The position numbers and the translations under genes were made by a program. A DNA stretch of 64,000 bases from Pseudobdellovibrionaceae bacterium (GTDB taxonomy: Bacteria > Bdellovibrionota > Bdellovibrionia > Bdellovibrionales > Bdellovibrionaceae): contig JAYUJM010000096.1 of NCBI GenBank assembly GCA_043765175.1, forward strand, positions 3,900 through 67,899. Reading direction: 5' to 3'. Numbering within the stretch: position 1 is the stretch's first letter; the number at the start of each line of letters is the position of its first letter. Below the pieces are notes generated by a model that had not been told where the DNA came from, searched no databases, and worked only from the letters and a program-made list of their open reading frames with translations. Shown one piece after another: positions 943 through 46,729 of this stretch.

Positions 943-1024
943 TTTAACAGTATAAATTACTCTTAAAGGCTGTGAAGTTAATTATGGAAACTTTATTTTG
1001 AATTAGACCAACTCGTGACTTAAG

Positions 1025-1062
1025 TCCAATATTGGAACCATATTTTAGTTCCAATTTGGAAC
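1025..1062. promoter_or_regulatory. Pair of related palindromes, candidate enhancer (UAS) for a sigma54 activator
   Basis: TCCAATATTGGA (1025-1036) and GTTCCAA-T-TTGGAAC (1048-1062); about 95-130 bp upstream of the predicted sigma54 start near 1157. Confidence 0.5.
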
Positions 1063-1130: not shown

Positions 1131-1146
1131 TGGCACATCAGTTGCT
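1131..1146 (+). promoter_or_regulatory. sigma54 (-24/-12) promoter
   Basis: TGGCAC-ATCAG-TTGCT, exact match to TGGCAC-N5-TTGCW, intergenic, pointing at a + strand terminator 230 nt downstream. Confidence 0.75.
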
Positions 1147-1156
1147 TAATAAGTTG

Positions 1157-1397
1157 TATGTTTAGATGGTTAGCAGTAGCTTACATTATCGTAGTTCTAG
1201 TTATTTCAGCTCGAGCAAAAGCGAACGATCTCAGACATTTTGAATTGTTTTTTAATCATCAGGCATTAATTTTAAACTAGGATCCCCTCCAAATGTTTAA
1301 AATCTGCTTGATGAGTAATTTTAAAATTAAAATTTGCTATCAATAGCACGTTTTTTATCAAGCTCAATTGTGGCCCCTCCTCAATTGAGCTTTTTTT
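1157..1397 (+). ncRNA. Candidate sigma54-dependent small RNA with two CCCCUCC-loop hairpins (may also encode a 40-aa peptide, 1158-1280)
   Basis: Promoter at 1131-1146; long hairpin 1252-1318 (TCATCAGGCA/TGCTTGATGA and TTTTAAAC/GTTTAAAA) with CCCCTCC at 1284-1290 in the loop; terminator hairpin with CCCCTCC at 1374-1380 in the loop. Confidence 0.55.
1360..1397 (+). terminator. Intrinsic terminator on + strand
   Basis: AAGCTCAATTG-N11-CAATTGAGCTT with a T-run on + only; the minus strand has no U-tract after the stem. Confidence 0.75.
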
Positions 1398-1416: not shown

Positions 1417-2694
1417 CTAATTAGATCGTTTAATTAAAGCACCTAATTGAGTTAATTTATTTTCAAGTTTTTCGTAACCACGATCTAAATGATAAATTCG
1501 GTTTACTACAGTATCACCTTTTGCAACTAAGCCTGCTAAAACTAACGAAGCTGATGCCCGCAGATCAGTAGCCATAACAGGAGCAGCCGTTAATTGATTC
1601 GCTTTTCCACGCACAACAGCCACTTGAGTTTTTGGCGTTATGTCTGATCCTAAACGCATTAACTCATTCACATGCATAAAACGATTTTCAAAAACATTTT
1701 CTGTAATAACACTTGTTCCTTCTGCAACCGACATTAATGCCATGAACTGCGCTTGAAGATCTGTTGGAAACAATGGATGTGGAGCTGTATTAATGTCTAC
1801 AGCTTTCCATTTTTTTAGTGGATATACTCGCATTGTTGTGTCGGTCGTTTCTATTTTAAAACCAGCTTCTTTCATTTTTAAAATTAAGGCTTCTAAATCT
1901 TGGGGTTGACAATCTGTCACTGTGACATCTCCGCCAGTGATAGCGCCAGCAATCAATAAAGTTCCTGCTTCAATTCTATCAGGCATAATTTTATGTGTTG
2001 ATGGTTTTAAACTAGAAACACCTGTAATTTTAATCACGCTTGTTCCCTGACCTGAAATCTGAGCTCCCATTTTTATAAGATAATTTGCCAAATCGACAAT
2101 TTCAGGTTCTTTAGCTGCATTTTCGATTGTTGTGATTCCTTCAGCAAGAACAGCAGCCATCAATAAATTTTCAGTTCCACCAACAGTTGTTTTTTCAAAT
2201 AAGACAGTTGCACCTTTTAATTTTTTTTGATTTGCACCCACTTTTGCAAAAACATAACCATCACGTAACTCGATTTCTGCACCCAGTGCTTTCATGGCAT
2301 CTAAATGTAAATCGATGGGTCTAGTTCCAATAGCACATCCGCCTGGAAGCGATACTGTGGCTTCGCCATACTTAGCTAACATGGGGCCTAAACACAAAAT
2401 ACTTGCACGCATTTTTCTTACTAAATCATAATGAGCTTCAAATGTTTTTAATTTAGAAACACGAACCGTTAATCTATTTTGATATGGATCAAGCCCACGT
2501 TCGCAATCACAACCTAAACTTTTTAACAAGTCAGCTGTAGAATCAATATCTTTTAGTAACGGCACATTTTCAAATATATGATCGCCTTCTGCCAATAATG
2601 TTGAAAATAAAATAGGTAGTGCTGCGTTTTTTGCGCCACTTGTTGAAACTTTTCCGTTCAAAACTTGTCCACCTGTGACTGTCATTTTATCCAT
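1417..2694 (-). CDS. murA: UDP-N-acetylglucosamine 1-carboxyvinyltransferase
   Basis: GAKNAALP, RKMRAS, LPGGCAIGTRP (catalytic Cys loop), FPTDLQ, ATDLRAS motifs. Confidence 0.98.
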   Translation of the reverse strand: MDKMTVTGGQVLNGKVSTSGAKNAALPILFSTLLAEGDHIFENVPLLKDIDSTADLLKSLGCDCERGLDPYQNRLTVRVSKLKTFEAHYDLVRKMRASILCLGPMLAKYGEATVSLPGGCAIGTRPIDLHLDAMKALGAEIELRDGYVFAKVGANQKKLKGATVLFEKTTVGGTENLLMAAVLAEGITTIENAAKEPEIVDLANYLIKMGAQISGQGTSVIKITGVSSLKPSTHKIMPDRIEAGTLLIAGAITGGDVTVTDCQPQDLEALILKMKEAGFKIETTDTTMRVYPLKKWKAVDINTAPHPLFPTDLQAQFMALMSVAEGTSVITENVFENRFMHVNELMRLGSDITPKTQVAVVRGKANQLTAAPVMATDLRASASLVLAGLVAKGDTVVNRIYHLDRGYEKLENKLTQLGALIKRSN

Positions 2695-39803: not shown

Positions 39804-39819
39804 TGCTAAAGAAGTGCCA
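39804..39819 (-). promoter_or_regulatory. sigma54-type promoter of the 58-aa peptide gene
   Basis: Minus strand TGGCAC-TTCTT-TAGCA (GG-N10-GC; one mismatch), 43 nt upstream of ATG. Confidence 0.55.
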
Positions 39820-45022: not shown

Positions 45023-46729
45023 TTATTCTTTTAATCTAAATTTTTTCTTAACTTGTTCAACGCCAGCACTTGCAGAGGATTTAATAATTGGTGTCACAAA
45101 GACAACGAAATTTCCACCATCTTTACGATACCCTTTGCCAGCAGATAAAGTGAGTAATGCTTTCGGATCAGTTGGTATTCCGTAATCATTTGAACTTGAT
45201 TTGCTAATCACACCACCAAATGCAGCACTTTGACGATCACGTACAGTAATTGTTGTTGAAATATTAGTGGTCGGAGTAAGTGTGTCACCAGTTGTTGTAG
45301 ATGAAACGACTAGGCCACCTAATTTAACTAGTCCAGCTCGAGGCTGCGTGATTTCCGGTTTAACAGAAACGCTAACAGAACTAACAGCACCATTTTGACT
45401 ATTTTTAGAACTTAAAGTTCTTGCAATAGTCGCCTGTCCTTTATTTTCTGTTAATACAGAAGCCGTGTCTAAGACTTTTAAAAATCCGTGGGTTTTTCCC
45501 CATTGAATTTTAGGAAAAATATTTTGGACAAGGGCCGCTAATGAATCAATACTGTTTTGTGATTGCTGAGCTGTATTCAATTGTAAGGCACTAGTCGTTG
45601 AAATAATGGGTTGAAAATCAAATTTAAAATTTTTCGCATATCTTTCACTAAATTCAACAAAGTGGACTACTATTTGAATCATCTTTTCAGGTGGTTCTTC
45701 CTTGTCTTCAGCTTTTCGAACATTGATTAAATTTAATATGTAATCTCCAGCTCCGCCGGTGATACTTCGATCTTTAATTAATAAATTTGGAACGCCACCC
45801 ATATTTGTATTTGTCACTGAAGCGGGTAGGTAAATAGCCACCAAATCTTGAACTCGAGTTTTTTCTTCTTGGCTATTTACAGTGCCTTCAAGCTTAATGT
45901 AATCGCCCACAACAGTGATAGTGACTTCGGGATTATTAATTTCACGCGCGATGTAATCCACAATTCTTTTTCTGGCGACAGGACTTAGTGTCACTAAACT
46001 TTTCACTGCGATAGGAGCAGTTCCTGCAGCAGCCCCTCCTGCTGTTCCAGGAGTTTGTCCATATGTTGTAATTACACTTCCTAATCGATTTAAATCTTGG
46101 GGTAACATGACGTAGCCATCGATGACAACGCCACCATTCACCGCTTTAAATTCCAGGCCTTCGATGTCAATTAATAGCGCTTTTAAATCACGTATGGCTT
46201 TATCAACTGCAGAGTCCCGAATATCTAAATGGAGTTCTGCATATATTTGACCTGTTTTTTTATTGTGTAATGTCACTATTCCGCTGGCAGCAGCTAGGGG
46301 CTCAATTCGAAAAATATCTGAATTTTTAATTCGCGCAATACTAATCATTGTTTGACCCACAGGAAGTATTTTCAAAGGCTGACTTGGTATTAATATTTCT
46401 TCATCTATTTTAACACCTTTTATCAATGATAAATGACGGCGAATTCTTCTTTTATTTGGTAAGGCTTCTGCTAAAATTTTAACGGGTTCTTTTGAATCTT
46501 CTAAATATTCATCTTCAACAGCTGATTGAACAAGTGTTGATTCAACTGGTGGCTTCGGTTCTACAGGATTATCTATCCCGTTTTGAGCCCACAAATTTTG
46601 AAATAAAAAAATAAATAAAAAATAAATTTTTAACTTATTGAACTTGAATAAATAACTATTTTCCTGGTTTAATTTGTCCACCATTATAGTTTGGCTGAAT
46701 TTGCGTTGGAAATCCACTGGACTGGCCAA
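45023..46729 (-). CDS. rcpA: Tad secretin RcpA/CpaC with BON-like domains
   Basis: N-terminal Ig-like segment, IKLEGTVNSQEEK BON pattern, MIQIVVHFVE..AAFGGVI..FVVFVTP secretin core. True start probably near 46687, not 46729. Confidence 0.8.
   Translation of the reverse strand: MASPVDFQRKFSQTIMVDKLNQENSYLFKFNKLKIYFLFIFLFQNLWAQNGIDNPVEPKPPVESTLVQSAVEDEYLEDSKEPVKILAEALPNKRRIRRHLSLIKGVKIDEEILIPSQPLKILPVGQTMISIARIKNSDIFRIEPLAAASGIVTLHNKKTGQIYAELHLDIRDSAVDKAIRDLKALLIDIEGLEFKAVNGGVVIDGYVMLPQDLNRLGSVITTYGQTPGTAGGAAAGTAPIAVKSLVTLSPVARKRIVDYIAREINNPEVTITVVGDYIKLEGTVNSQEEKTRVQDLVAIYLPASVTNTNMGGVPNLLIKDRSITGGAGDYILNLINVRKAEDKEEPPEKMIQIVVHFVEFSERYAKNFKFDFQPIISTTSALQLNTAQQSQNSIDSLAALVQNIFPKIQWGKTHGFLKVLDTASVLTENKGQATIARTLSSKNSQNGAVSSVSVSVKPEITQPRAGLVKLGGLVVSSTTTGDTLTPTTNISTTITVRDRQSAAFGGVISKSSSNDYGIPTDPKALLTLSAGKGYRKDGGNFVVFVTPIIKSSASAGVEQVKKKFRLKE

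Follow-up and report, generated by a model that had tools for sequence, protein, structure and literature searches.

We wanted to determine what is encoded in a gap of 474 nt (positions 943-1416) that separates two genes of the - strand in a bacterium of the Pseudobdellovibrionaceae. The window, by which we mean the whole stretch of DNA that was analysed, is 64,000 nt long and comes from a 2.79-Mb metagenome-assembled genome with 33% G+C. A sequence-only reading had proposed that the gap holds a small regulatory RNA driven by sigma-54, carrying two CCCCUCC hairpin loops. All the sequence features listed by this reading were recovered in our analysis. It had overlooked a conserved small ORF (1158-1280) and an enhancer-like repeat upstream of the promoter. 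The best explanation of positions 1008-1397 is a single transcription unit on the + strand, which is a reduced ortholog of Bd0074 of B. bacteriovorus. The claim of a regulatory RNA therefore held in part. What stood is a discrete + strand unit, with a sigma-54 promoter at its start and an intrinsic terminator at its end; what did not stand is that this RNA would be simply non-coding, as it carries a small ORF under purifying selection and descends from the gene of a 132-aa protein. The coordinates of the features are collected in Table 1.

Table 1. Features of the gap and its flanks, in positions of the window.
Feature	Position	Strand	Basis or detail
N-terminus of ~1000-aa GYF/TPR protein	1-942, extends upstream beyond the window	-	one flank of the gap
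Enhancer-like upstream activating sequence	1008-1062	+	conserved block and repeats
Conserved block CCAACTCGTGACTTAAGTCCA	1008-1028	+	part of the enhancer-like sequence
Half-sites TTGGAAC, GTTCCAA and third TTGGAAC	1032-1038, 1048-1054 and 1056-1062	+	9 nt between the first two
Sigma-54 (-24/-12) promoter TGGCAC-N5-TTGCT, TGGCACATCAGTTGCT	1131-1146	+	exact match
Small ORF, 40 aa, MFRWLAVAYIIVVLVISARAKANDLRHFELFFNHQALILN	1158-1280, stop TAG 1278-1280	+	codon-level conservation
Hairpin 1, long imperfect stem	1256-1314	+	minimum-free-energy fold; apical loop AGGAUCCCCUCC, motif 1284-1290
Arms of hairpin 1	outer 1256-1265 / 1305-1314; inner TTTTAAAC/GTTTAAAA	+	
CCCCTCC motifs	1284-1290 and 1374-1380	+	exact occurrence
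Small hairpin UGCUA-UCAA-UAGCA	1335-1348	+	compensatory changes
Intrinsic terminator hairpin and U-run	1361-1397	+	invariant loop GGCCCCUCC, motif 1374-1380
murA	1417-2694	-	other flank of the gap

The protein encoded at the left flank has a GYF-like domain followed by TPR repeats. By synteny it is orthologous to HD100 Bd0075, a protein reported to be essential for predation and to interact with Bd0474 (PMC12034629). A sigma-70-like promoter (TTCACA-16-TATACT, 976 to 949, - strand) lies ahead of this gene. At the other flank, no separate terminator follows murA (stop at 1417). Read on the - strand, the hairpin at 1361-1391 is followed by UUGAUAAAAAA and has no U-run; therefore murA transcripts may run antisense through the element toward the GYF/TPR gene.

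The perfect sigma-54 box proposed earlier was found as an exact match on the + strand. Boxes with at most one mismatch occurred twice in the window against 1.8 expected, which is not significant alone. The box carries weight because it is conserved in every orthologous locus: TGGCAY-N5-TTGCT was invariant in all inspected orthologous loci that reach far enough upstream. A second sigma-54-like box in the window, TGGCACTTCTTTAGCA (39804-39819, - strand), has one mismatch to TGGCAC-N5-TTGCW. Genome-wide, we counted 7 boxes of the form TGGCAY-N5-TTGCW, and the one in the gap was the sole TGGCAC box. The other six were all TGGCAT-N5-TTGCW (genome G000, contigs C43, C53, C57, C79, C97 and C31), and several of these precede an apparent Shine-Dalgarno (SD) sequence and start codon. 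The same genome encodes RpoN (a 494-aa ORF with the RpoN box ARRTVAKYR) and four ORFs with GAFTGA, that is, enhancer-binding proteins. So few boxes together with four enhancer-binding proteins point to a very small sigma-54 regulon.

Further, the enhancer-like block is located ~95-150 bp 5' of the predicted transcription start, and its distance to the box is the same in almost every locus of the genus. Its consensus in the genus reads CCAACTyATGACCAAAGTCCA, then TTGGAACC, 6-9 nt, GGTTCCAA and a third TGGAAC; GGTTCCA/TGGAAC variants of the repeat were seen in Bdellovibrio and in family f12. The inverted repeat TTGGAAC-N9-GTTCCAA with its third half-site would fit an upstream-activator site, for which a distance of ~80-150 bp from the promoter is expected, and the succession of repeat and box (1008-1146) was unique in the genome. 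From this anatomy we infer that transcription depends on sigma-54 and that the promoter is enhancer-dependent, with a dedicated activator.

The ATG of the small ORF lies 11 nt past TTGCT, and this spacer measured 11-13 nt in 32 of the 38 distinct loci of the genus. With such spacing, the ATG coincides with or adjoins the position where sigma-54 transcription usually starts, and the mRNA is thus predicted to be leaderless. Across the elements of the genus the ORF was 38-75 codons long. Over the 21 N-terminal codons of 33 distinct sequences, column entropy was 0.70, 0.38 and 1.38 bits at codon positions 1, 2 and 3, respectively, and 48% of codon differences were synonymous in the ORF frame vs 12% and 4% in the other frames. 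This codon periodicity and the excess of synonymous differences indicate that the ORF is translated and that purifying selection acts on it. The conserved peptide, M-x-[RK]-W-L-A-V-A-Y-I-V-V-V-L-V-I-S-A-K-A-[KR]-A, ends in an AxA-type signal-peptidase-like site. Its n-, h- and c-regions were recognised by inspection, and residues 1-22 resemble either a signal peptide or one transmembrane helix. Proteins of the Bd0074 family have a homologous N-terminus. Searches of Pfam and NCBIfam with the peptide and with its long orthologs gave no family at threshold. The ORF in the window ends with TAG in frame with GAT CCC CTC, and relatives have at this place the CAG of QDPLP. In this species the ORF therefore seems to have been truncated by a single CAG-to-TAG change.

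Both copies of CCCCTCC proposed earlier were confirmed, one in a hairpin loop and the other in the loop of a terminator. In the minimum-free-energy fold the first copy sits at the apex of the long hairpin, whose 5' arm includes the stop codon of the ORF. The terminator was likewise found as proposed, with a 10-bp stem (1361-1370 with 1382-1391), the loop UGGCCCCUCCU and a T-run (T7) at 1391-1397. A simple terminator pattern scan did not flag it, and the probable cause is its loop of 11 nt vs the 8-nt limit of the tool. CCCCTCC or GGAGGGG was present at 29 sites of the genome, both strands together, while in the gap two copies lie within 90 nt on one strand, which bears out the earlier view that two loop heptamers here are unlikely by chance. 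The third CCCCTCC of the window (46033-46039, + strand) falls within apparent coding sequence, GGAGGGGCTGCTGCAGG on the - strand.

The hairpins appear to be maintained as RNA structures. For the stem of hairpin 1, none of 500 shuffles attained the observed covariation score. In the alignment of the 3' domain, compensatory changes were seen in 13 of the 19 predicted pairs, and the loop GGCCCCUCC was invariant in 14/14 sequences. Compensatory changes in the small hairpin included GCUA/UAGC to GUUA/UAAC and CACUG/CGGUG, and most relatives have a GNAA-type tetraloop at its position. With invariant loops on covarying stems, the two CCCCUCC loops were the most conserved features of the RNA. In 53 distinct elements of several genera, CCCCUCC was always at the apex of a hairpin in the minimum-free-energy fold. 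Pairing between the flanking GG and CC leaves only a CCCCU pentaloop exposed in some hairpins. The first motif was downstream of the stop codon in 29 of the 33 elements of the genus and inside the ORF in only 4, and its reading frame varied (18, 8 and 7 elements over the three frames). Since this motif lies mostly past the stop and in any frame, the constraint is on the RNA.

The covariance analysis of the gap downstream of murA, which had been suggested as a check, was favourable to the element: loops and box were conserved to a degree well above chance, and syntenic elements were present beyond the genus, in further genera and in other families of the order. BLASTN homology in relatives began at the sigma-54 box and ended at the terminator. 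In each of the first 14 loci fetched, the box was followed on its own strand by CCCYTCC motifs. With a covariance model built on the 3' domain, 49/52 genomes of the genus gave a match (30/31 of the high-quality ones), nearly always as one strong copy. In genome G003 of the genus the element is located near 85.6-86.0 kb. In genera g16, g17, g18 and g20 and in family f12 the element lies between convergent murA and the divergent GYF/TPR gene, and outside the window's genus the syntenic elements carry 2-3 CCCCUCC hairpins. The ORFs of family f12 were 31 to ~90 aa long, some of them stopping right after the hydrophobic segment, and were followed by 2-3 such hairpins. Hairpin 1 was absent from a subgroup of 4/38 distinct elements of the genus, in which the start of the ORF and the loop of the terminator remain. 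In these loci (L016 and L020 of genomes G019 and G006, and the similar L150 and L155) the ORF continues through the small hairpin and the terminator loop, and GGCCCCTCC is read as A-P-P or G-P-S. A phylum-wide scan with the genus-level model added one element of the genus type in another family, plus false positives. The added locus (L284, G410:C20), on a short contig, has the box, a mini-ORF started with GTG and two CCCCTCC hairpins; it reflects either a binning artefact or a wider distribution.

In Bdellovibrio proper (genus g17) the locus holds a single-copy ORF of 131-133 aa in 44/44 genomes. The ortholog in HD100 has the coordinates 67,752-68,150 on the - strand, which are exactly those of Bd0074. 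Orthology is based on synteny (murA ... Bd0074, Bd0075-serS), the sigma-54 box, the N-terminal peptide and the CCCCUCC hairpins. The unit in this genus comprises the sigma-54 box, a leader of ~30 nt with the SD GGGGAG and a GTG start. The protein has a signal peptide, a beta-rich mature domain and a C-terminal segment VDPLP...VVFFVFGISEV. Its 3'UTR contains two terminator-like hairpins, each with a CCCCUCC loop and a U-run, and a third CCCCUCC is in a hairpin of the coding region, where it encodes DPLP of VDPLP. The AlphaFold model of the Bd0074 family (mean pLDDT 68) consists of an N-terminal helix and a small beta-barrel, with the VDPLP segment, whose sequence is fixed by the RNA hairpin, in a low-confidence loop. 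The beta-barrel gave weak OB-fold matches (SSB, potempin) with E of about 0.01-0.06 (L283 = HD100 67,450-68,450, alignment A4), which weakly suggest that the modelled mature domain is OB-fold-like. Among the papers searched, we found no discussion of Bd0074, and its single mention in a text is a slip for Bd0075. The 3'UTR hairpins and the VDPLP coding hairpin were likewise unreported in the literature that we found on Bd0074 or on the CCCCUCC motif.

Bd0074 and the window's version differ in several respects. Bd0074 has a 5'UTR with an SD, a GTG start, 132 aa and VDPLP encoded by the first hairpin, while the window's mRNA is predicted to be leaderless and to encode 40 aa. The motif is coding in Bd0074 (VDPLP), whereas the window's version has a stop codon before it. 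Judging from these sequences, in the window's genus the coding part is decayed and the mature protein lost, while the hairpins are retained. The first motif as a mere relic of VDPLP codons was considered and rejected: it was found after the stop in three frames, and the other motifs were never coding. Published RPKM values for Bd0074 were 7.6 in attack phase vs 2365 in growth phase, and the gene was listed as 233-fold growth-phase induced (PMC3627812 Table S1). The sequence-only reading had suggested a possible link to the predatory cycle, and the ~230-fold induction of the HD100 ortholog supports it indirectly.

We then compared the element with known RNAs. An Rfam search had been proposed earlier, and cmscan of positions 900-1500 with E up to 10 gave only chance-level matches of 14-20 bits, far below gathering scores; none of these was to a cuckoo-type family. 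RNAIII of S. aureus is a dual-function RNA which encodes a small peptide and whose C-rich loops, including the terminator loop, pair with ribosome-binding sites. It differs in having 514 nt, 14 hairpins, the agr P3 promoter, a UCCC motif and a host among the Firmicutes, and it has neither sequence nor covariance-model similarity to the element. RsaE/RoxS of Bacillales has several CCCC motifs, in loops or unpaired, which target G-rich ribosome-binding sites. It is non-coding, however, with ~100 nt and other promoter control, and its covariance model did not match here. Qrr, GlmY and Pxr share with the element a sigma-54 promoter with an upstream enhancer and a short structured RNA with a terminator; they differ in being non-coding and in having seeds which are not C-rich loops, while the window's transcript would open with a translated ORF. 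A precedent for the layout is cuckoo/CcsR1-4 of Alphaproteobacteria (ccaF1-CcsR, Rhodobacter sphaeroides), RNAs that are derived from a small-ORF mRNA with anti-SD hairpin loops in its 3'UTR (PMC8034643). There, too, an alternative sigma factor drives a small-ORF mRNA with several 3'UTR hairpins, each with a C/U-rich loop resembling an anti-SD, and the locus is conserved together with the ORF (PMC8034643). In cuckoo/CcsR, however, the motif is CCUCCUCCC, with two hairpins per RNA, while the loops in the window are CCCCUCC and CCUCCUCCC is absent. Its promoter is served by RpoHI/HII and not by sigma-54 with an enhancer. Its ORF is DUF1127 (CIN1 context), while the ORF in the window encodes a signal-peptide-like product, its orthologs are predicted to be secreted and OB-fold-like, and the host belongs to Bdellovibrionota. 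Membership in the cuckoo, RNAIII or RsaE families was rejected on the grounds of another motif, the lack of a covariance-model match and another ORF. The element may at most work like these RNAs.

By analogy with CcsR/cuckoo, RNAIII or RsaE, the reading that we prefer is a dual-function mRNA and riboregulator, to which we give somewhat less than an even chance. Briefly, an enhancer-binding protein on the TTGGAAC/GTTCCAA repeats would activate RpoN-RNA polymerase at the box. Transcription would start at the ATG (1158) or 1-2 nt away from it and end near 1397, yielding an RNA of ~240 nt. Leaderless translation would give the 40-aa peptide, which amounts to little more than a signal peptide or one transmembrane helix. 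The apical CCCCUCC loops would serve as C-rich seeds, pairing with G-rich, SD-like sequences of other RNAs, and either the whole transcript or a shorter piece from its 3' end might be the active form. In this history a 132-aa secreted OB-fold-like protein, as in Bdellovibrio, would have lost its mature part in the window's genus, which kept the RNA modules. The loops are invariant on changing stems, occur in 2-3 copies and are kept despite the decay of the protein, which argues that they are a functional RNA element; base-pairing of these loops in trans is what we infer from the analogy.

We hold the riboregulator reading only tentatively because the usual SD of the genome is AAGGA(G), G-rich ribosome-binding sites are few and no conserved target emerged. 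The preference for AAGGA(G), not GGAGG, comes from motif counts at ribosome-binding sites of crude gene calls. Approximately 8 candidate ribosome-binding sites contained GGAGGG or GGGAGG, among them those of flgB, a phaR-like gene, an ECF sigma factor and ssb. None of the 29 GGAGGGG/CCCCTCC sites of the genome, all of which were inspected, was at a clear conserved ribosome-binding site. The site of flgB, the sole candidate compared in relatives, was G-rich across 28 genomes of the genus and not consistently complementary. Repression of mRNAs with a GGAGG ribosome-binding site, as the sequence-only reading had it, is therefore not favoured by the data. Pairing in cis of the loops with the SD of their own mRNA was rejected, as there is no leader in the window's genus and only 4-5 nt could pair in Bdellovibrio (GGGGAG vs CCCCUCC). 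A bolder proposal would make the element an order-wide riboregulator under sigma-54 and an enhancer-binding protein, whose loops, often GGAyCCCCUCC and similar to the anti-SD tail of 16S rRNA, silence or titrate in growth phase RNAs with a G-rich SD, e.g. those of attack phase, and would place the mRNA of the epibiotic genus midway between protein gene (Bd0074) and sRNA, with a leaderless mini-ORF for a signal peptide as all that is left of the coding part; we consider this rather unlikely.

A different explanation, which we regard as unlikely, is that the locus is a degenerating protein-coding gene whose hairpins are tandem terminators or 3' stabilisers shielding the convergent murA operon. 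The loop would then be kept in cis, for terminator efficiency or RNase resistance, and would have no role in trans. In agreement with this, both 3'UTR hairpins in Bdellovibrio are followed by U-runs, the gene has high expression and a convergent orientation to the murA operon, and the target searches gave none. Termination, however, constrains stem and U-run, yet here the stems turn over and the 7-nt loop stays unchanged from family to family. The motif is also present in hairpin 1, which is not a terminator, and within the coding region of Bdellovibrio, and the hairpins stayed in the window's genus while the protein shrank.

The CCCCUCC loops could also be sites for an RNA-binding protein, governing stability, localisation or translation of the mRNA or titrating the protein, which seems to us quite unlikely. 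Candidate binders would be a KH-type or S1-type protein, or a factor which recognises the 3' tail of 16S rRNA, a tail that we take to be GGAUCACCUCC. Two or three identical short motifs on hairpin apices are typical of protein-titrating RNAs, expression of the ortholog is very high, and many loops read GGAyCCCCUCC, several of them resembling the presumed tail as GGAUCCCCUCC. Against it, two or three sites are few for a sponge, a bacterial protein binding C-rich loops was not identified here, and the resemblance to the presumed 16S tail was limited to a subset of loops. In a combination of both views, the hairpins with U-runs may be plain tandem terminators with protein-binding loops.

A locus similar to type I toxin-antitoxin systems, with a hydrophobic membrane toxin and a structured mRNA restraining its translation, is highly improbable. 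The 40-aa hydrophobic peptide and the highly structured mRNA would suit it, but the gene belongs to the syntenic core, nearly always occurs in one copy and is orthologous to that of a 132-aa secreted protein. Moreover, the conserved segment closes with the AxA-type site, no minus-strand promoter or terminator was seen within the element, and the mRNA has no SD to sequester. Least credible of all is an RNA of the - strand whose GGAGGGG loops act as a CsrA sponge, an alternative left standing by the sequence-only reading and rejected here: the genome encodes CsrA and the - strand loops contain GGA, but promoter, enhancer, codon-periodic ORF and U-run are all on the + strand, the - strand folds less well (z = -2.6 vs -5.7 for the + strand, relative to shuffles), and two loops are too few for a sponge of the CsrB/RsmZ type.

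In summary, the reading of the locus as a dual-function mRNA touches on a subject, post-transcriptional control in Bdellovibrio-like predators, which is almost unexplored; the sRNAs reported from Bdellovibrio are only attack-phase sRNAs and merRNA (PMC3627812). The locus offers an RNA module that has clear limits, strong conservation and an obvious seed, and a dedicated sigma-54 enhancer with apparently a single target. The series from 132 aa to ~40 aa would be a natural example of RNA hairpins that outlast the decay of their protein gene. With an ortholog that is induced more than 200-fold in growth phase, the element may provide a testable entry into growth-phase regulation of these predators, and it bears on the origin of 3'UTR-derived or dual-function sRNAs.
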